Source of the DNA: a virus
Taxonomy: Duplodnaviria; Heunggongvirae; Uroviricota; Caudoviricetes
DNA: 13,265 nt
Strand: one strand, 5' to 3'
IMG/VR virus record: IMGVR_UViG_2939152649_000005
The stretch's first letter is position 1; each line of letters starts with the position of its first letter. A program made the translations under genes and the position numbers. Positions 2,908 through 13,265 of the stretch are shown in pieces. The notes beneath the pieces are model-generated. The model saw only the letters and a program-made list of their open reading frames with translations. It was not told where the DNA came from and did no database searches.

Positions 2908-3139
2908 ACTGAAATTTCACCACCATAACTTTGCTTGATTAATAACCAAATTACATGAATATTTTGGTTTGGGTCCGAATAACGGATACAAACCAGAACA
3001 GGACCTACCACCAGAACCGCTATTAGTTGTATCGAATTTGACACAATGCCCGCCCGCAGTAATCAAGCCGTCAAGCAAATATCGTTGTGCTGTTCATGAC
3101 ACACCTGATCCCTCAAGAATTGCTCACAGCGAGAAAAAT

Positions 3140-4195
3140 ATGGATACCCCGGACATAATTTCCGTACCAGAGGTCACTGCTGCGACAGAACCGCAGTCCT
3201 CTGCAGAATGCTTCACCTTTGGCGATCCCATTCCCGTACTGGACCGGCGCGAACTGCTGGACTATGTGGAATGCGCGCAGATGGATCGCTGGTATGAGCC
3301 GCCGGTGAGTTTTGCAGGGCTGGCACGTACCTACCGAGCAGCCGTACATCACAGTTCACCAATTGCCGTTAAGCGTGACATTCTCAGCAGTACCTACATC
3401 CCACACCGCCTGCTCAGTCAGCAGTCTTTTGCCCGTTTCGTTCAGGATTATCTGGTGTTTGGTAATGCCTATCTGGAAAAGCGTACTAACCGGCTGGGCG
3501 GCGTCCTCACACTGGAGCCAGCGCTGGCGAAATACACCCGGCGCGGCGTTGACCTGGAATCCTACTGGTTTGTTAACTATGGCCTGACAACGCAGCCTTA
3601 TGAGTTCACCAGAGGCAATATTTTTCACCTGATGGAACCGGATATTAACCAGGAAATTTACGGGCTGCCCGGCTACCTCTCCGCCATTCCGTCAACCCTG
3701 CTCAACGAGTCCGCAACGCTGTTCCGCCGGAAGTATTACATCAACGGCAGCCATGCGGGCTTCATCATGTACATGACCGACGCGGCGCAGAATCAGGAGG
3801 ATGTGAACAACATCCGCAAGGCAATGAAAAGCGCCAAAGGGCCGGGCAATTTCCGCAATCTGTTTATGTACTCACCCAATGGCAAAAAGGACGGCATCCA
3901 GATCATCCCGCTGTCAGAGGTGGCGGCGAAAGATGAGTTTCTGAACATCAAGAACGTGAGCCGTGATGACATGATGGCAGCGCACCGCGTGCCGCCGCAG
4001 ATGATGGGTATCATCCCCAGCAACACCGGCGGCTTTGGCGATGTGGAAAAGGCCAGCCGTGTTTTTGTCCGCAACGAACTGATGCCGCTGCAGAAGCGAC
4101 TGCAGGAGCTGAATAACTGGCTGGGCGAAGAAGTGATCTGCTTCGAGCCTTATTCTTTACAACTTGATGAAAGTGCTGATAGCAACAGGGGGTAA
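3140..4195 (+). CDS. Possible P2 gpQ-type phage portal protein (351 aa from the first ATG); the family assignment is tentative
   Basis: Long ORF with ordinary codon usage. The track ORF begins at a TTG at 2969; the first ATG is at 3140 (MDTPDIISVPEV...). Its size matches the ~340-350 aa I recall for P2 Q, and it is transcribed toward a structured candidate cos region, as P2 Q is. I cannot confirm the family from memory. Confidence 0.5.
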   Translation: MDTPDIISVPEVTAATEPQSSAECFTFGDPIPVLDRRELLDYVECAQMDRWYEPPVSFAGLARTYRAAVHHSSPIAVKRDILSSTYIPHRLLSQQSFARFVQDYLVFGNAYLEKRTNRLGGVLTLEPALAKYTRRGVDLESYWFVNYGLTTQPYEFTRGNIFHLMEPDINQEIYGLPGYLSAIPSTLLNESATLFRRKYYINGSHAGFIMYMTDAAQNQEDVNNIRKAMKSAKGPGNFRNLFMYSPNGKKDGIQIIPLSEVAAKDEFLNIKNVSRDDMMAAHRVPPQMMGIIPSNTGGFGDVEKASRVFVRNELMPLQKRLQELNNWLGEEVICFEPYSLQLDESADSNRG

Positions 4196-4198
4196 TGT

Positions 4199-4561
4199 AT
4201 GGGATGGATCGGCGTTGATCTGGATGGCACGCTGGCGGTGTACCCGCCAGAGAGCGGGGCGCTAATAGGTGATGCCATTCCCGGCATGGCGGAAAGGGTC
4301 CGCAAATGGCACAAGGATGATATTGAAGTACGAATTTTTACCGTCCGGGCTGGTTCGCGTGCCGGAGTGAAGCAAGTTAAAGCCTGGTTGAAAGCCAATG
4401 AACTGCCGGACCTGATGGTGACGAACGTTAAAGACAGCGGCATGGTGGAATTATGGGATGACAGAGCGATACGTGTTATCCGTAATACCGGTTCAGTATG
4501 CGCCGGTTGCAACGGCACATCGCAGTTCCACCACCATTCAGGAGATTTCACCAACTGCTGA
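4199..4561 (+). CDS. Small HAD-superfamily-like protein (putative minimal phosphatase/nucleotidase) with a Cys/His-rich C-terminal tail
   Basis: ATG at 4199 is 3 nt after the upstream stop and is preceded by AGGGGG. The N-terminus MGWIGVDLDGTLA matches HAD motif I (hhhhDxDGT). Motif-II-like Thr in RIFTVRAG, downstream lysines, and motif-IV-like ELWDDRA occur with spacing compatible with a cap-less HAD fold. The tail is SVCAGCNGTSQFHHHSGDFTNC. Confidence 0.6.
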   Translation: MGWIGVDLDGTLAVYPPESGALIGDAIPGMAERVRKWHKDDIEVRIFTVRAGSRAGVKQVKAWLKANELPDLMVTNVKDSGMVELWDDRAIRVIRNTGSVCAGCNGTSQFHHHSGDFTNC

Positions 4562-6350: not shown

Positions 6351-9023
6351 TTAACCTAGAACCTCGCTGTTGAAGACATAGAGCCTGCGGGGATTCATCT
6401 CTGGCGGGCGAATGTTTGTCTGCAGCTTGCCATCGGTGGAGGGCAGCAGATATCCACGATCCGCGCACAGACGTGCCACCTTGCGCGGGTCAAATCCCCG
6501 GCAGATTTCTTTCCAGCCGGACGGCATGACGTAGAACGTGGTGACAGCTTCCGTGCCCTGCGCGGTACTGCCTTTCTCCACCCTGCGCCAGCCCACCATA
6601 TTGCCGGGGCGGTTGCGCTCGTCGTGCCAGTCAGCAAAGCGGCTGTACTGATTCGCGGTAAAGAAACTGCGTACCTGCTCCAGTGCGGCAATATCTTCCT
6701 GATTGGCGGTGTGCCCGCGATCTTTCAGCCATGCGTTTAGGCAGACGCGGGTTGCCCGCAGCGCTTCACCCTCAGGCCAGCCGGTAATACCCAGCCGGGT
6801 TGCCAGCTCGCCCGCCATCGCCACCAGTGCAAAGCGGTTCACAGCCCGGCCTACCTGATTACCCGCATCTTTCGGGGTCAGGGCGGCGGTATATTCCTTC
6901 ATCAGTGACTTTGCCTGTGCCGTCAGCCCGTTAAGGTCAGCGGTCAGGGCTTTCAGCCACTCCCTGAACGGCGAACCGTAGTAGCTGGACGTGGCCCACT
7001 CCAGATGTTCCGCCAGAGCCTTGCCGCTGTCGAAGCCGTGCAGCTCCTCAAATACGCCAAATTTCCCGGAATCGCTGGGGATCTGGATCATCCTGACTTC
7101 CATCCCGGCAAAGGTACGCTCACCGGCTTTTGCCGCATGTTCGGTCAGTGACAGCTCGCCGGTTGAAAAGAACAGCAGCCGCCACTGCTTACGGGTGCGC
7201 AGCTCACCGTCCGTACCGGCACGGCCCTTGCCCTGACCGTTTGCCAGCATGTAGGCGATATTACCCGCCTCGCGTCCGTCCACCTCCCGGATCTCATCAA
7301 GCATCATGGCGGCATCGTTGCGGCGGCTGGCGCATCCCTCCAGCGCGTTGCCGGTTGCCCGCCACGTCTGCCAGTAATCAGGCCCGCCACAAACGGAGGT
7401 TGCCGCTTTCATGGTGGTGGTCTTACCGTCAGTCGATTCCCCCTTGAGGTGGTAGCCGCCGCCGTCCATCCCAACCAGCCGTAACAGGGGTGCAGCAAAG
7501 GCCAGACTGACGGCAAACGCCACGCGGGAGTTACCGGTGCAGTAACGGGAAACGTGCTCCCGCCATTCCTCCGTTGTACCTGACACACGGAAATCGCGCC
7601 CCTGCACGGAAGTGGTCTGGAGAATGACACCCTCTGCACCTTCACCGCTGACCTCATCCTGCAGGACGTAAACCTGACCATGCCAGCCAGTGCGGCTGAC
7701 GCAGGTCACGCGGCGTTCCGGTTTACACAGCGAGATATATTCCATCAGGCGGGCGCGGGCCTCACCGGTGGTGCTGATATAGGACAGCCCGTTAACCAGC
7801 AGTACCCGGCGCAGTTCCTCACCGCTACCACTGAGCATTTCCATCGGCATCGCCCAGCGGCGGCGCTCTCCCCATGTATCTTCCCACTCCAGCAGTCGCC
7901 CGAAATTACCGCCATCGGCATCGCAGGTGATTGCCGTCACGCGCAACGGGTTGCATATTTTGACGTTCTGGATCTCCGTCTCACCGTTGCGCTGTACCTG
8001 TTTTTCATACCAGAGATATTCCTGGGTAAGACGGAACCCGTGCGGCAACTGCGTGCGGCCTTCTCCGCACAGTACAAGACCGTTACGAAAGGCTTCACGG
8101 GCACGTGTAATACCGTGCTCACGGTGGAAGTCATTCCAGTCAGCTTTAATTTCTCCCGGTGGCAGCGTCACCCAGCCACCGACTGATTTTGCCGCCCGTT
8201 CAGCAAAGGATCTGCCGGGATTCTCGCCCCCGTCCTGAAAATCGTTATCACCGGCGATGATAATTTTTACCTCAGGCCAGCGTGCCCGCAGCGCCTGTGC
8301 GACGTTGGGCAGGTTGCCCGCCGATATGGCCGCCACTACGCATCCGGCGGTGAGCTGGCTTACCGTCAGCGCCGTGGCGTAACCTTCGGTAATCACCACC
8401 TGTACCGGCGGTTCAGACGGTAACGGGCTGAGCGCCACAAACGCGCCTTTCATCGTGCTGCCGGGCAGTATGCTTTTTTCACCCGTCGGGGCGATAAGCT
8501 GTGCACCGGTCACGGCTCCGGCGTTCGTCGTGAGCGGTAACAGCAGGGAACCGGCAGGGAAATCCTTACCACTGATATGCTGCACGCTCCCGGTCAGGGA
8601 GGCCGGGTATCCGGCGAACCCTTTTCCGGTCAGATAGGGGCTTTCTCCCGTGTGACTCTCTTTCATCAGGGCCGCCACGGTAAGGCTCATATCGCGTTTA
8701 GGGGCTTTTTGCCTGGCGGGCTTAACGGGCAGTTCCTGCACATCCGGCACATTAAGCACCTGCGCCACCTCCTGCGCTGCCTTTCTGACGCCGTAACCGG
8801 TTATGAGCTTAACCAGATCCAGACCATCACCATTGCCGCACTGGCTGCAAATCCACGTCCCGCGCCCGTCGAGGTCATCGAGGCGGAAGCGATCCTTGCC
8901 CCCACATTTCGGGCAGGGACCGTGCCTGCCGTTTTCAGGTACATCAATACGCAGCATCTGCAGAATGACGGGCCATTTTCCCCGCGCTGCGGCTGAAATC
9001 TGCGTAACCGTCTGTGTTGTCAT
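6351..9023 (-). CDS. P4 alpha-type bifunctional DNA primase-helicase (zinc ribbon + Toprim-like primase + P-loop NTPase)
   Basis: 890-aa ORF. N-terminal CPKCGGKDRFRLDD...WICSQCGNGDG is a CxxC...CxxC zinc ribbon. IIAGDNDFQDGGENPG is a Toprim-like acidic DxD motif. GYHLKGESTDGKTTT is a Walker A (GxxxxGKT). Its ATG overlaps the stop of the upstream small ORF. Confidence 0.9.
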   Translation of the reverse strand: MTTQTVTQISAAARGKWPVILQMLRIDVPENGRHGPCPKCGGKDRFRLDDLDGRGTWICSQCGNGDGLDLVKLITGYGVRKAAQEVAQVLNVPDVQELPVKPARQKAPKRDMSLTVAALMKESHTGESPYLTGKGFAGYPASLTGSVQHISGKDFPAGSLLLPLTTNAGAVTGAQLIAPTGEKSILPGSTMKGAFVALSPLPSEPPVQVVITEGYATALTVSQLTAGCVVAAISAGNLPNVAQALRARWPEVKIIIAGDNDFQDGGENPGRSFAERAAKSVGGWVTLPPGEIKADWNDFHREHGITRAREAFRNGLVLCGEGRTQLPHGFRLTQEYLWYEKQVQRNGETEIQNVKICNPLRVTAITCDADGGNFGRLLEWEDTWGERRRWAMPMEMLSGSGEELRRVLLVNGLSYISTTGEARARLMEYISLCKPERRVTCVSRTGWHGQVYVLQDEVSGEGAEGVILQTTSVQGRDFRVSGTTEEWREHVSRYCTGNSRVAFAVSLAFAAPLLRLVGMDGGGYHLKGESTDGKTTTMKAATSVCGGPDYWQTWRATGNALEGCASRRNDAAMMLDEIREVDGREAGNIAYMLANGQGKGRAGTDGELRTRKQWRLLFFSTGELSLTEHAAKAGERTFAGMEVRMIQIPSDSGKFGVFEELHGFDSGKALAEHLEWATSSYYGSPFREWLKALTADLNGLTAQAKSLMKEYTAALTPKDAGNQVGRAVNRFALVAMAGELATRLGITGWPEGEALRATRVCLNAWLKDRGHTANQEDIAALEQVRSFFTANQYSRFADWHDERNRPGNMVGWRRVEKGSTAQGTEAVTTFYVMPSGWKEICRGFDPRKVARLCADRGYLLPSTDGKLQTNIRPPEMNPRRLYVFNSEVLG

Positions 9024-9403
9024 ACTTCCCCCTGATACAGCGAAACACCCGAGCTGCAGAAGTCATCAAATGCCGCCGGAAGTGTGCGGTACAGCTCCGC
9101 CATCACTTCACAGCCGCGCACAGTCAGTACCGGTGGCGCGGTCAGCAATGATGGCTCCAGCATGTCAGTCAGCAGCGCCAGTGCAGCCGCTGCTCCCTGT
9201 GCTTCGCCATATTCGTTAATCAGTGCGCACTCGATATGCAGGGCAATGGCCATTTCAATACGTTCAACCGTCAGGCTGTGCGGACCATAGTGATCGCAGC
9301 CGGTTTCGGTCAGCGCTTTCTGGCGCCAGGCCGATGCAATAGCCCGCCGGTAAAGCGCAGTGGTCATTTCTGCCGGAAAAATAGAAACCTGCGGCTGGTT
9401 CAT
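9020..9403 (-). CDS. Hypothetical protein (127 aa), last of four small coupled ORFs upstream of the primase gene
   Basis: Start overlaps the stop of the 9400-9684 ORF; stop overlaps the primase start. Same strand and operon as the primase. No motif recognised. Confidence 0.55.
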   Translation of the reverse strand: MNQPQVSIFPAEMTTALYRRAIASAWRQKALTETGCDHYGPHSLTVERIEMAIALHIECALINEYGEAQGAAAALALLTDMLEPSLLTAPPVLTVRGCEVMAELYRTLPAAFDDFCSSGVSLYQGEV

Positions 9404-9684
9404 TGGGTGCCTCCTTCAATCAGTTCGCAACTGTGCGCAATATCCGTCAAATCTGCCCGCAGGTACTCCATCAGCGCGGCGATGCCTGGCGCACATCCTG
9501 CATCCAGCGTTCCGCCCTGCGAGGGGTATTCAGAAAAGAGAAGCTGCAACATGTCGCAGGCCTTTCTGGCGCGGGCCAGCTTTCCGAAACCGTCCTCTGA
9601 CAACCCATACGCAAAAGCACCGCTATTGTGTTTTTCAGGCAAAGCGTGGCCCTGAGCACCGTTGTGCCCGTTTGAAATATTCAT
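9400..9684 (-). CDS. Hypothetical protein (94 aa) in the replication operon
   Basis: ATG at 9684 preceded by GGAG at about 9 nt; stop overlaps the start of the next ORF. No motif recognised. Confidence 0.55.
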   Translation of the reverse strand: MNISNGHNGAQGHALPEKHNSGAFAYGLSEDGFGKLARARKACDMLQLLFSEYPSQGGTLDAGCAPGIAALMEYLRADLTDIAHSCELIEGGTQ

Positions 9685-9715
9685 CGTGGATTACTCCGTT
9701 TTCAGCGGTGTTTTG

Positions 9716-10075
9716 TCAGAGAAACTTTGAATAGTGACTGTCGTCAGGTTCAGCAGAACGCCGTATGCTGCGCTCCCGCCAGCGGGTAAATACCACCGAC
9801 GGATGCAGCGTCAGCGAGCCAGAGCCGCTACCCCCCGCGGGAGCTGGCGAAGGTTTAAAGAGCGGCGCATCAAACAGGCGCGTATACCGCTGTTCAAACC
9901 ATGCCAGAGGGCAGGAAGAAAGCTGGTTGTCGCTGTCATGACGTATCAACACTTCACAGCTGAATTCAGGATTAACCAGCGCCACGGAGGGAGACGCTTC
10001 AATTAGTCGGATGATTGTTACGGTCCAGCCACGTTCATGCTGCCAGCGTTCGCCGGGTTGCGGATAATTACGCAT
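9716..10075 (-). CDS. Hypothetical protein (119 aa from the ATG at 10075) in the replication operon
   Basis: The track ORF is extended to 10105 by an alternative start. The ATG at 10075 is preceded by GGAGG (GGAGGTGAACATG) and overlaps the stop of the upstream 58-aa ORF (ATGCGTAA). Confidence 0.55.
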   Translation of the reverse strand: MRNYPQPGERWQHERGWTVTIIRLIEASPSVALVNPEFSCEVLIRHDSDNQLSSCPLAWFEQRYTRLFDAPLFKPSPAPAGGSGSGSLTLHPSVVFTRWRERSIRRSAEPDDSHYSKFL

Positions 10076-10244
10076 GTTCACCTCCACAGGGAATGCGACC
10101 GGCAAAGCTCAGCACATAGTCCGGGGCCAGTCTGCGCCGCGCTGAGCGCTCGTTATCTGCGGTGATCCTTAACATCACAGGACGGGCATTGCGTTGACTG
10201 CGGTTGATCGCCGCAAATAACCAGGTAAACTTCTGTTTAGCCAT
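10068..10244 (-). CDS. Small basic hypothetical protein (58 aa), first gene of the replication operon
   Basis: ATG at 10244 with GAGGA 8-9 nt upstream. The 244-aa track ORF 10068-10802 shares this frame, but its upstream part crosses an intergenic region, a terminator, and genes on both strands, so only the last 58 codons are credible. Confidence 0.45.
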   Translation of the reverse strand: MAKQKFTWLFAAINRSQRNARPVMLRITADNERSARRRLAPDYVLSFAGRIPCGGEHA

Positions 10245-10320
10245 CTTCGTTTCCTCATACAGCGGATTGGTCAGAAGCCCGGTTAGTGTTGCTGCACTGT
10301 CGGGCTTCGCATTCACAAGG

Positions 10321-10410
10321 TGAATCGCACCTTTGCTTTTAAAGCTACCCTTAAGTGAATCGCACTTCAAGTCTTTTATTATCATTTTTTTTGCGTATAC
10401 TGAATCGCAC
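10321..10410. promoter_or_regulatory. Three direct repeats of TGAATCGCAC in the divergent promoter region between the RHH gene and the replication operon; candidate operator sites
   Basis: Copies at 10321-10330, 10366-10375 and 10401-10410. The third directly follows a TATACT (-10-like) hexamer located ~30 nt upstream of the RHH gene's ATG. Confidence 0.5.
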
Positions 10411-10431
10411 CTAACGCAAGGAGATCCAGTA

Positions 10432-10617
10432 ATGGCAACGGGTTCAACTAACAACAAGTCGCAGCAACTTAATGCTCGTTTCCCACATGATGTAGTTGCA
10501 GAATTAGAAAGCAACCTTGAAGATGGAGAAACGAAAGCGCAATTTATTGTTACCGCTGTAAAAGGCGAGATTAAACGCCGACAGCGCAGGAAAAATAAGC
10601 CAGAGCAAGTAAACTGA
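10432..10617 (+). CDS. Small ribbon-helix-helix (Arc/MetJ-like) DNA-binding protein; candidate repressor
   Basis: 61 aa from the ATG at 10432, with a strong AAGGAG 8 nt upstream. NARFPHDVVAELE resembles the RHH N-terminal beta-strand/helix of Arc (NLRWPREVLDLV). It is divergent from the replication operon and followed by a terminator. Confidence 0.6.
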   Translation: MATGSTNNKSQQLNARFPHDVVAELESNLEDGETKAQFIVTAVKGEIKRRQRRKNKPEQVN

Positions 10618-10680
10618 ATAGAGAAGCGAACAGACGTTCTCTCAGGTTCCATGTCAATTTCAGTAAGCGACAATATTTTT

Positions 10681-10714
10681 AAGCCCACAAACTCAATTTG
10701 TCGGGCTTTTTTAT
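10681..10714 (+). terminator. Rho-independent terminator for the RHH gene, at the convergence with alpA
   Basis: AAGCCCACAA-actcaat-TTGTCGGGCTT hairpin (one bulge) followed by TTTTTTATT on the plus strand. Confidence 0.55.
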
Positions 10715-10944
10715 TAGTGATTTTCATGCCGTTCACCACGAGAGGCATATATTTGCTCTTGAATCCAGTGATCGACTTCGCTTTCAACAAATGAAATTGC
10801 ACGAGTTCCTATTTTCACCGGGCGGGGAAATGTATTGTTTGAAAGCTGTTTGTAAAGCCATGCCTTGCTACGCTGAACGCGTCTTAGCACCTCTTTTGCT
10901 GAGATAAGAGTCTGATTATCTGAAAGGTTGTTTGCATATTCCAT
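10714..10944 (-). CDS. alpA: AlpA-family phage regulatory protein (MerR-like HTH; excisionase/Vis-like)
   Basis: 76 aa from the ATG at 10944, with GGAG 7 nt upstream; the track ORF is extended by a GTG start. ...ISAKEVLRRVQRSKAWLYKQLSNNTFPRPVKIGTRAISFVESEVDHWIQEQI matches the AlpA signature I recall (L..EV....GLSRST.Y.....G.FP.P.K.G.R...W...E...W). Confidence 0.8.
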   Translation of the reverse strand: MEYANNLSDNQTLISAKEVLRRVQRSKAWLYKQLSNNTFPRPVKIGTRAISFVESEVDHWIQEQIYASRGERHENH

Positions 10945-11250
10945 CTTGTTACTCCGTGTTCTACTTAAGTTCACGGTGACTTTAAACAGTGTAAGAACAT
11001 GATTCTAGTGATAATGGAATCTATCGAAACCGATATAGTTTCTATTGAAAGATTTTTATTTCTATTAAAAATGAAATGCAAACTTGATCGGCATCTAGTT
11101 AAAAATAAAACACAATAATATCATAAAGTTAAATTATAACTTCGAGTTCAAAACATGGATTAAAGTCACTCAATGGGTATTCATTGCACTATAACACATC
11201 ATATTTCCCCATATCTCCCCAGTATTACGCAGTTTTAGCCAGTTTATTAC

Positions 11251-12002: not shown

Positions 12003-13265
12003 TTATTTTCCATGCACACGCGCAAAATCATATGGTGTGATAGATCCATTCTTGTTAGCATCAATGTAATCAGCCCACCATTGCAGCATTAATTTTCTTT
12101 CTTCAAGATATTCAGATGTATGCATGTATGAACCTTTCACGTTTTTTCGTTCAACGTGACTTAGCTGTCTTTCAATGGCATCATCATTCCATAGTTTCGA
12201 CTCACTTAGCGCACCACGCGCCATAGTTCTAAAACCATGCCCACATACTTCTGTCTTCGTATCATATCCCATTACACGTAAGGCACTATTTACAGTATTT
12301 TCACTCATTACTTTTTTAGGATCATGATCGCTGGGAAATATAACCTCGCCTTTACCGCTCAAGGCATGTAAACGTTTAAAAATATCAAATGCTTGTTTGC
12401 TAAGCGGAACAATATGTTCAGTTTTCATCTTCATCCCACGCTCAGAGTGTTTTACGCCGGGAATAGGTTTACGAATTCCGGGTATCGTCCACTCGCTTCG
12501 TTCAAAGTTAACCTCACTCCATCGAGCAAAACGCATCTCACTTGAACGAATAAATGTGAGTAGCGTTAATTCAACGGCAAGCCGTGTCATTAGTCGCCCT
12601 TTATAGCGTGATAGTCTTTCAAGAAACTCAGGGATTCTTTTTGGGGGTAGTGCTGGGTGATGGGTTGCCTTAACGCTTAAAAGCGCTCCAGCCATATCAC
12701 TGGCAGGATTTGATTCAAGAAGGTCATTCTGCACACCGAAACGCATAATTGCGGTTACGCGCTGCATCAGTCGCTGCGCAACATCATGTTTACCTGCCGC
12801 ATCAACAGCTTTGATCGGATTGAGAAGCTGGCTGGTTCTCAACGTTCTGGCGTCAATTTGACCTATCGAGGGGAAAATATACTGCTCAAGCGTCAGCAGA
12901 ACGCGACGGCTATGATCTTCGCTCCAAGTTAGGTTACTTGCGTGCCATTGCCTTGCGATAGTTTCAAATAAATATGCCCCCTCAATTTCAGCTTGTGCCC
13001 CCTTTTGCTCAGCTTTGGGGTCAATGCCCTGAGACAACAATTTCTTTGCTGCATCGCGCTTACCCCTAGCCTCAGCCAAAGTGATCGTCGGGTATACACC
13101 AAAAGCGAGCCGATCTTCCTTTTTGTCAGATGGGCGGCGATATTTCATGCGCCAATACTTGGAACCTTTTGGGGAGACTTCAAGATACAAGCCGCCTCCA
13201 TCAGCCATTTTATAGGCTTTCTCTTTCGGCTTTGCGGTCTCTATCTGGCGAGCATTGAGTTTCAT
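12003..13265 (-). CDS. int: P4-type tyrosine integrase (DUF4102 N-terminal domain + catalytic domain), apparently intact, 420 aa
   Basis: The ORF runs from an ATG formed by the last 3 nt of the window to a stop at 12003. The N-terminus MKLNARQIETAKPKEKAYKMADGGGLYLEVSPKGSKYWRMKYR is collinear with the pseudogene at 1618-2615. It retains the C-terminal part the pseudogene lacks, including HGFRTMARGAL (box II H-x-x-R) and downstream Tyr residues. Confidence 0.9.
   Translation of the reverse strand: MKLNARQIETAKPKEKAYKMADGGGLYLEVSPKGSKYWRMKYRRPSDKKEDRLAFGVYPTITLAEARGKRDAAKKLLSQGIDPKAEQKGAQAEIEGAYLFETIARQWHASNLTWSEDHSRRVLLTLEQYIFPSIGQIDARTLRTSQLLNPIKAVDAAGKHDVAQRLMQRVTAIMRFGVQNDLLESNPASDMAGALLSVKATHHPALPPKRIPEFLERLSRYKGRLMTRLAVELTLLTFIRSSEMRFARWSEVNFERSEWTIPGIRKPIPGVKHSERGMKMKTEHIVPLSKQAFDIFKRLHALSGKGEVIFPSDHDPKKVMSENTVNSALRVMGYDTKTEVCGHGFRTMARGALSESKLWNDDAIERQLSHVERKNVKGSYMHTSEYLEERKLMLQWWADYIDANKNGSITPYDFARVHGK

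Follow-up and report, generated by a model that had tools for sequence, protein, structure and literature searches.

A putative ribbon-helix-helix repressor of the YlcI/YnfO family and a predicted SymR-like antisense RNA: a candidate silencing module of P4-like satellites and Gram-negative phage-inducible chromosomal islands

In the immI region of phage P22, a small, divergently encoded ribbon-helix-helix (RHH) repressor acts at operators located on both promoters, and the sar antisense RNA covers a ribosome-binding site. In the plasmids pMV158 (CopG and RNAII) and R1 (CopB and CopA), the replication initiator is limited by a repressor together with a countertranscript over the translation start. 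Among phage satellites, the silencing agent is known for P4, where it is an RNA, and for the Gram-positive phage-inducible chromosomal islands (PICIs), where it is the Stl protein; the master repressor of Gram-negative PICIs has been called “unclear” (Fillol-Salom et al., 2018; PMC6092414). Here we describe a locus in a stretch of 13,265 nucleotides from a caudoviricete record (IMGVR_UViG_2939152649_000005; hereinafter, the window), which is a P4-like satellite, with the focus on a 61-codon gene of the YlcI/YnfO family (ylcI for short) and the control region that it shares with the divergent operon leading into the primase.

We consider it likely that an RHH repressor of the YlcI/YnfO family reads three boxes in this control region and silences both the replication operon and its own gene, that an antisense RNA over the first gene of the operon provides a second layer, and that the two jointly replace the C4/CI module of P4. 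An initial annotation of the window, made from the letters alone, had proposed an autoregulated repressor and protein-based immunity or derepression control for the stretch 10245-10617, i.e., the intergenic region plus the divergent small ORF. The comparisons below support the autoregulated repressor; the part of the proposal that put protein control in place of RNA control does not stand, given that a predicted SymR-like antisense RNA had been overlooked. The features on which the argument depends are as follows.

10432-10617, + strand: ylcI-like gene, 61 codons (ATG at 10432, TGA at 10617), divergent from the icd-like gene and located between alpA and icd-like
10420-10423, + strand: ribosome-binding site GGAG, 8 nt before the ylcI ATG, kept in relatives
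10399-10411: box 3 (O3), ACTGAATCGCACC, over the last 2 nt of the ylcI -10 element and the predicted start site
10396-10401, + strand: predicted P_R (ylcI promoter) -10 element TATACT, with a poor -35 element and a T-run upstream
10354-10366: box 2 (O2), AGTGAATCGCACT, at the start of the P_L spacer, with a 2-nt overlap with the predicted P_L -35 element
10342-10370, - strand: predicted P_L (promoter of the icd-like/primase operon), -35 TTGAAG 10370-10365, 17-bp spacer, -10 TAGCTT 10347-10342, start at about 10335
10319-10331: box 1 (O1), GGTGAATCGCACC, pseudo-palindrome GGTG-N5-CACC at about +2 to +15 of predicted P_L
10068-10244, - strand: icd-like gene, 58 aa (NCBIfam NF033153 phage_ICD_like, 1e-24), ATG at 10244, first gene of the leftward operon

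The 61-aa protein matches the NCBIfam model NF041551 (YlcI/YnfO family) with 65.7 bits, the cut-off being 30 (E 2.8e-18), also matches phrog_949, and is identical to a protein named YlcI/YnfO family protein in RefSeq. Its homologues come from Escherichia, Salmonella, Klebsiella, Citrobacter, Enterobacter, Dickeya, Pectobacterium, Yersinia, Serratia, Hafnia, Morganella, Proteus, Xenorhabdus, Photorhabdus and further genera; the family is narrow, with 90 representative clusters among 1.84 billion proteins, and a search of 50,697 phage records with the region (blastn) and the protein (tblastn) returned no match. For comparison, we used 45 loci from about 20 genera, namely, 7 from E. coli, 36 usable ones out of 42 taken as one genome per species, EcCICFT073 and the window itself. 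The proposal in the initial annotation hinged on the conservation of this ORF, and the gene is intact in all 45 loci, with dN/dS values of 0.01-0.2 (median 0.19 over 369 pairs) that indicate strong purifying selection; between the window and the relative L009, for instance, pN is 0.008 and pS is 0.52.

The AlphaFold2 model of the protein (pLDDT 86) shows the order strand-helix-helix, with the RHH topology contained within about 45 residues: a predicted strand at about residues 11-17 (QQLNARF), helices at 19-27/30 and 35-55, and a basic tail. In the strand segment S-Q-Q-L-N-A-R-F-P, alternating polar or basic residues are followed by a proline, and R16 and P18 are invariant or nearly so; the conserved turn G32-E33-T/S34 at the start of helix 2, with E33 nearly invariant, corresponds to the G-x-S/T/N turn of RHH proteins. 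The best structural neighbours of the model are the DNA-binding domains of RHH antitoxins (CopA_SO, Rv0298, MazE6, TacA), the topmost being a CopG-family domain; AmrZ, HicB, NikR, omega, TraM and the RHH domain of PutA are also among the neighbours; an earlier, poorer model already had RHH proteins as its top matches. In an hhalign comparison with P22 Arc, the sequence of which was checked against PDB, residues Q12/N14/R16/P18 align with Q9/N11/R13/P15 of Arc (P 6e-4, probability 28%), where Q9, N11 and R13 are the base-contacting residues. The 61-aa gene thus models as encoding an RHH protein with an Arc-like Q-x-N-x-R-x-P strand. An analogous alignment to Mnt was too weak to use (P 0.046).

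Several results weigh against the RHH assignment. No Pfam family is matched by the protein at E<=0.01, or at threshold by 30 family members or 10 distant representatives; the only sub-threshold matches are to the RHH families CB_ParB_C and PSK_trans_fac, which leaves the protein outside the curated RHH families. A Foldseek search of PDB with the first structure model gave no match, a PDB sequence search with the first profile gave nothing useful, and with a broader profile the sole match was weak (3no7, E 0.038). Furthermore, the structure model is that of a monomer, the dimer and its two-stranded sheet being putative, and we found no binding, transcript or phenotype data for the YlcI/YnfO family in the literature.

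The case for a repressor comes from the 187 bp between the divergent ATGs of icd-like and ylcI. As the initial annotation had noticed, this region contains three copies of one repeat, and one of them touches a -10-like hexamer, the last two bases of TATACT being overlapped by box 3. The repeat, TGAATCGCAC, occurs exactly three times in the window (10321, 10356 and 10401), always on the + strand and within 90 bp, and no further sites are found in the window when up to 2 mismatches are allowed. In 20,000 dinucleotide shuffles of the intergenic region, any 10-mer was present three times in only 14, trivial T-runs included. The pseudo-palindromic GTG-N5-CAC form of the boxes would fit binding by an RHH dimer.

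The arrangement of the boxes relative to the predicted promoters recurs in the relatives. A predicted minus-strand promoter of the form TTGAnn, a 17- or 18-bp spacer and TAnnnT, with box 2 in the spacer, is present in 38 of 44 loci, and in the classes with a 23-bp spacing, box 1 lies on the P_L -10 element instead. Similarly, a -10-like hexamer (mostly TATACT, with few cases of TATAAT, TATTCT and others) starts 36 nt before the ylcI ATG in 41 of 44 loci, with box 3 covering its end and the start site, and the distance between boxes 2 and 3 is 45 bp in 34 of 39 loci. With boxes 1 and 2 on the leftward promoter and box 3 on the promoter of ylcI itself, an autoregulated repressor can be inferred. 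Two observations speak against this interpretation: both predicted promoters are weak, P_L because of its -10 element TAGCTT and P_R for want of a good -35 element, and a generic promoter scan listed neither. The lack of a good -35 element in P_R is typical of activator-dependent promoters, and some RHH proteins, e.g., AmrZ, act both ways, which might suggest that the YlcI protein activates one or both promoters rather than repressing them. This we regard as extremely improbable because all three boxes lie on a spacer, a -10 element or a start site, where bound proteins normally occlude RNA polymerase, and there is no box at -40 to -60.

Two other features of the control region were noted along the way. 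A terminator scan flagged AAGGTGAATCGCACCTT followed by TGCTTTTAAA at 10317-10333, just after hairpin 2 of the antisense RNA described below; we read this flag as the palindromic box 1 operator itself. Imperfect inverted repeats between the leader (10230-10303) and the ylcI interior (10519-10598) were weighed as seqA/seqB-like read-through pairings and dropped: the best one matches at 17 of 21 positions, with a chance expectation of about 0.07 by a rough estimate, the others have chance expectations of about 1, and they are not in one register.

The protein and the boxes are linked by their joint variation among the relatives. In all 45 loci, the gene order, read on the alpA strand, is int, variable genes, an alpA-type helix-turn-helix gene, ylcI on the opposite strand, icd-like, small ORFs and primase, and the primases of related loci belong to different families. 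The fixed parts of the intergenic region, that is, a structured leader, box 1, box 2 with TCAAG or TCAAT immediately after it, the T-run, GTATACT, box 3 and GGAG, are conserved base for base, and the boxes occupy the same positions in the relatives, in agreement with the assumption of the initial annotation that the repeats should be present in related elements. The sequence of the boxes, by contrast, varies between elements, and the three boxes of one element change jointly, together with residues 11-17 of YlcI and with no other neighbouring gene. About eight mutually distinct classes of strand and box specificity can be distinguished, among them:

Strand QQLNARF: GTGAATCGCAC, 13 loci in five genera
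Strand QMTT[VI]R[IV]: GTGAAATACAC, 14 loci
Strand QL[FT]TVRV: TGAAACACAC, 8 loci
Strand QALKARV: GTGTGGCCCAC, 3 loci
Strand QKLQTRA: GTGGAYTCCAC
Strand QIKNVR[IV]: GTGTGYAT
Strand RQISIRI: TGAATCACAC

The outer GTG and CAC of the boxes, like R16 of the protein, are almost constant. Members of the QQLNARF class from Escherichia, Citrobacter, Dickeya, Pectobacterium and Morganella have boxes that are 92-96% identical (box 1 alone shows 95% pairwise identity across the 5 genera), compared with 55% for the spacer between boxes 1 and 2. The element EcCICFT073, examined only after the rule had been set, has the QALKARV strand and carries GGTGTGGCCCAC twice and CTGTCCCCCACC once, in keeping with the GTGTGGCCCAC box of that class.

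Natural exchanges of this region delimit what varies as a unit, and they define the following segment:

10300-10599: swapped cassette, comprising the three boxes, both predicted promoters and roughly codons 1-55 of ylcI

Identity between the window and the relatives L020 and L002 is 92-100% on either side of this cassette and only 38-78% within it. The same exchanges bear on the possibility that the small protein is unrelated to the boxes, which would instead be origin iterons for the primase or initiator, or sites for AlpA or a helper activator. In favor of such roles, the ori and crr of P4 contain short repeats that serve as initiator sites (annotated in NC_001609), and AlpA is a DNA-binding regulator encoded next door. 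Against iterons, the flank from icd to the primase is 94-96% identical in L002 and L020 (96.5% in L020) despite different boxes, and in L003 and L006 the YlcI protein and the boxes are those of the window, but AlpA, the Icd-like protein and the primase are different. One set of boxes is found with primases of the DUF927 type and of other families. Against AlpA sites, the same AlpA (WP_001670042.1) is found in L001, the control region of which is that of the window, and in L002, yet the boxes differ. Because these natural swaps uncouple the boxes from AlpA, the Icd-like protein and the primase, all three are ruled out as readers of the boxes, and the iteron and AlpA-site readings were rejected. 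The positions of the boxes, locked to -35 and -10 elements, point in the same direction, and a helper factor would leave unexplained why box changes coincide with changes in the strand of the neighbouring protein. Altogether, we disfavour this group of explanations and consider it very unlikely.

Thus, what is inherited as a unit is the predicted repressor and its candidate operators, in several distinct specificities. Two points temper this conclusion. The long-form loci L007 and L019 have the strand QQLNARF or QQINARF, yet their boxes keep only the GTGAAT half and differ in the right half, which implies that the strand is not the sole determinant; and the gene and the boxes are about 100 bp apart, so that linkage accounts for some of the co-variation. 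That three separate sites change in concert nonetheless argues for something beyond linkage.

In the long form of the protein (about 101-111 aa), helix 2 is followed by about 40 extra residues and then by the same basic tail; this form is found in L007 (2582-2887), L008 (2577-2882), L019, L036, L037, L040, L042 and L044-L048. In those long-form elements in which the boxes can be located, boxes 1 and 2 are mostly about 20-23 bp apart, rather than 35, and inverted. Some elements also carry antirepressor-type genes with KilAC or BRO-N domains between alpA and ylcI, convergent with ylcI (L004 2975-3754, L008 3258-3836); in capsid-forming PICIs, AntA/AntB have been tabulated next to YlcI/YnfO (PMC13612085). 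Between int and alpA, L004 (4975-5041) and L018 (6057-6125) carry the Rfam int-alpA RNA motif (RF02996), which was not detected in the window.

The second component of the module is a predicted RNA on the strand opposite to the icd-like gene, with the following elements.

10204-10231, + strand: predicted antisense RNA promoter inside the icd-like ORF, -35 TTGATC 10204-10209, 16-bp spacer, -10 TAAACT 10226-10231
10238-10317, + strand: predicted SymR-like cis-antisense RNA, about 75-80 nt
10240-10271, + strand: hairpin 1, with the anti-Shine-Dalgarno CCUC in the loop
10242-10244, + strand: anti-start codon CAU, at the 5' end of the RNA
10274-10308, + strand: hairpin 2, terminator-like

Across 41 distinct loci, T1, A2 and T6 of the antisense -10 element TAnnnT are invariant or nearly so, whereas its inner bases and the Icd-like residues that it encodes are variable; the element is located 10 nt from the anti-start codon (4 nt in one group). 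For the predicted RNA, 97.6% of cells pair on the + strand vs. 85.8% on the - strand, 11 of the 20 pairs show compensatory change, and the observed values were reached in 0 of 500 shuffles. One stem position is G-U in 27 of the 41 sequences, which would be C-A on the other strand; hence the structure is supported on the + strand only. The minimum free energy z-score is -3.2.

A covariance model built from the satellite RNAs has as its best non-self match the annotated symR of E. coli K-12 (L053 2334-2418, set against 10237-10317 of the window; 26 bits, E 4.7e-5) and finds nothing in P4. In the reverse direction, the Rfam SymR model (RF01809) aligns over its full length to 10239-10311 (+). This match, at 23.2 bits and E 0.025, is below the gathering score of 61, and the terminator tail of the RNA is U-poor in the window, both of which count against a SymR-like RNA. 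The cis-antisense geometry and the two-hairpin structure of SymR are both present in this predicted transcript. The recovery of K-12 symR by the satellite model suggests that SymR and the satellite RNA share a common origin although their targets, SymE and the Icd-like protein, are unrelated. SymR is transcribed from a promoter inside symE (Kawano, 2007; PMC1891008), and by analogy, the satellite RNA would act on icd-like as SymR does on symE.

The resemblance to SymR, an RNA antitoxin, raises the question of whether the module is mainly a toxin-antitoxin stabilisation system, with the Icd-like protein as the toxin, the antisense RNA as the antitoxin (type I, cf. SymE/SymR) and the RHH protein as an extra lock. 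The annotation of Icd-family proteins as cell division inhibitors and the antitoxin domains among the best structural neighbours of YlcI are compatible with such a system. The 61-aa protein, however, ends with the RHH domain and the basic tail and lacks any extension for toxin binding, ylcI is divergent from icd-like rather than co-transcribed with it, and the controlled transcript runs on into the primase, which makes a primarily stabilising function improbable in our judgment.

Whether the satellite retains an RNA of the P4 type, a search that the initial annotation had called for because such an RNA would argue for RNA immunity, can be answered by comparison with P4 as a positive control. 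In P4, the C4 (74.9 bits), isrK (60.8) and c4-a1b1 (44.1) models are all recovered, with c4-a1b1, an isrK-like element and the C4-family CI RNA located directly upstream of an icd-like ORF, and P4 has no ylcI. None of the three was detected (Rfam, E<=1) in the whole window, including the control region, nor at the gathering score in 20 ylcI-bearing relatives. Given this absence, the P4 RNA immunity module is replaced in this satellite, and because the conserved antisense RNA covers the icd-like ribosome-binding site, RNA control would have been replaced rather than lost.

The presence of this RNA also supports a more modest role for the protein, namely, that it only autoregulates or fine-tunes expression (cf. 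CopG), whereas silence is held by the antisense RNA or by a host or helper factor. Indeed, the conserved RNA covers the translation start of the first gene, and the combination of an RHH protein and a countertranscript is the copy-control design of pMV158 (CopG/RNAII). Furthermore, over-expression of AlpA alone induces EcCICFT073, in which ylcI is present (PMC6092414). Two of the three boxes, however, lie on the leftward core promoter and not on that of ylcI, and the matched specificity classes that are swapped as cassettes resemble immunity regions. We therefore view mere fine-tuning as rather unlikely and favor the repressor of the replication operon.

The surroundings of the module in the window are those of a P4-like satellite, with an integrase gene (12003-13265, -), a 212-aa ORF (-), a Psu-like gene and an Ogr/Delta gene, the latter two also on the - strand. 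The genes and the terminator next to the module are:

10714-10974, - strand: alpA/vis-like gene (Pfam Phage_AlpA, 1.9e-11), convergent with ylcI and upstream of the icd-like/primase operon
10681-10714, + strand: ylcI intrinsic terminator, with a stem at 10681-10708 and a U6 run behind it; apparently weak in the other direction
6351-10075, - strand: remainder of the operon, with ORFs 9716-10075, 9400-9684 and 9020-9403 (DUF5375), then the primase
6351-9023, - strand: primase, 890 aa, with zinc ribbon, Toprim and DUF927 domains

A close E. coli relative (L001) adjoins tRNA-Leu and is 100% identical to the window over 10000-11000 and about 96% identical elsewhere. At the far end of the window, an IS3-family element (353-1563, -) with orfA, orfB and an ALIL frameshift pseudoknot (1166-1282, 121.5 bits) abuts a second P4-type integrase gene (1704-2651, -) that lacks the end of the catalytic domain; together, these look like what is left of an adjacent or tandem element. 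Between this incomplete integrase and the late genes of the satellite, beyond the Ogr/Delta gene, there are a portal-like gene (2969-4192, +; Pfam Phage_portal, 5e-18) and an ORF of 120 aa (4199-4561, +); portal genes are unusual in P4-like satellites.

From this organization, we infer the following switch. A dimer or higher oligomer of YlcI would read the three GTG-N5-CAC boxes with its N-terminal beta-strand. Occupation of boxes 2 and 1, on the spacer and at the start site of P_L, would keep icd-like, the three small ORFs and the primase off, and binding of box 3, on the -10 element and start site of its own promoter, would result in negative autoregulation of ylcI. The antisense RNA, presumably made constitutively from the promoter inside icd-like, would pair with the icd-like Shine-Dalgarno sequence and start codon and block the translation of leaky transcripts; by analogy with c4/icd/ant of P1, it may also silence the downstream genes by polarity. 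The matched classes of boxes and proteins, at least eight, are exchanged as a cassette, as are the immunity regions of temperate phages. As for the flipping of the switch, our guess is that helper-induced alpA transcription reads convergently through ylcI into the operon; this speculation would fit the published AlpA reporter data and the one-directional look of the ylcI terminator.

The module extends to the model element EcCICFT073 (L055, NC_004431 1377930-1388700), which carries all of it: ylcI (L055 10474-10653, -), the three boxes, icd-like (10853-11053, +) and the antisense RNA (62.5 bits). Both ylcI and icd-like of this element have late RefSeq locus tags (C_RS30120 and C_RS30125), suggesting that they were probably absent from the original annotation used in the published PICI work. 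In that work, for which EcCICFT073 was used, AlpA was shown to be an activator, the expression of which depends on the helper phage and the over-expression of which leads to uncontrolled replication (Fillol-Salom et al., 2018; PMC6092414). Our literature searches (YlcI/YnfO/DUF3950, P4-like elements with RHH proteins, Icd with repressors, EcCICFT073 with the AlpA inducer) found no functional description, nor any described function of YlcI of prophage DLP12 or YnfO of prophage Qin. We tentatively hypothesize, with somewhat less than even confidence, that RHH proteins of the YlcI type and the SymR-like RNA together form the master repressor system that has been missing for Gram-negative PICIs and a large share of the P4-like satellites, that the code linking strand and box sets heteroimmune classes, and that the system is flipped by convergent read-through from alpA.

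If this is true, the published picture in which the activator AlpA is the sole control of Gram-negative PICIs would be incomplete, probably because ylcI and icd-like were missing from the annotation of EcCICFT073. A large fraction of enterobacterial genomes harbour P4-like elements and PICIs, the cargo of which includes genes for defence and virulence, and for the silencing role in the Gram-negative satellites, EcCICFT073 included, the locus is a concrete candidate, which comes with mapped candidate operators, a predicted second layer of RNA control and a readable specificity code. It would also assign a likely function to the uncharacterised YlcI/YnfO family and connect the SymR RNA of the chromosome with a module found widely in satellites.

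Among the described systems, the immI region of P22 has the same overall layout, with a small divergent RHH repressor (predicted in the case of the satellite), boxes on both promoters and an antisense RNA from the region of the first controlled gene, and the strand Q-x-N-x-R-x-P of YlcI corresponds to Q9/N11/R13/P15 of Arc. Unlike Arc, the satellite protein has no match to the Pfam Arc family, and the hhalign probability is only 28%. Moreover, the satellite has one repressor gene rather than two and three separated 13-bp boxes rather than one 21-bp operator; its operon encodes the Icd-like protein and the primase instead of an antirepressor, and the RNA resembles SymR, not sar.

The immunity module of P4 occupies the same position, between vis/alpA and the icd-like first gene of the primase operon, and presumably has the same task, to keep the operon off in the integrated state; as in immI of P1 (c4-icd-ant), the RNA would act on the translation start of an icd-like gene. 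The difference is that the satellite RNA is a cis-antisense RNA from the opposite strand, whereas the C4-type RNA is trans-acting and processed from the same transcript, and that the satellite adds a predicted protein repressor with its operators.

The RNA itself resembles SymR of K-12, with a comparable size, a promoter inside the target ORF, a start a few bases inside this ORF, complementarity to the start codon and the Shine-Dalgarno sequence, two hairpins with a shared GUGUUG..GCAC apex, and reciprocal detection. In contrast to symR, its target encodes an Icd-like protein and not the AbrB-fold SymE, and it is paired with a putative RHH repressor inside a satellite; symE, in turn, has a LexA box.

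With pMV158, the satellite shares the combination of an RHH repressor and a countertranscript, both of them predicted in the satellite, and the top structural neighbour of the YlcI model is a CopG-family domain; there, CopG is encoded by the first gene of its own repressed operon, whereas ylcI is divergent, and here three boxes lie on two promoters in an integrated phage satellite. In the Gram-positive PICIs (SaPIs), the regulator, Stl or Rpr, is likewise divergent from the excision and replication operon and next to int, but Stl proteins are larger helix-turn-helix proteins with an unrelated fold, and nothing in the satellite points to antirepression by a helper protein.

Finally, the namesakes of the family in K-12 (NF041551), YlcI of DLP12 and YnfO of Qin, share the N-terminal domain, and K-12 YlcI likewise reads as strand-helix-helix (RNIRFP...GSGNFS...). 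Unlike the satellite gene, ylcI of DLP12 (L052 4252-4446) is located beside cos and nohD at the end of a lambdoid prophage, with neither an icd-like gene nor a SymR-like RNA nearby. We regard the YlcI module as a new and uncharacterised addition to the RHH repressors, and not as a system of a novel kind.

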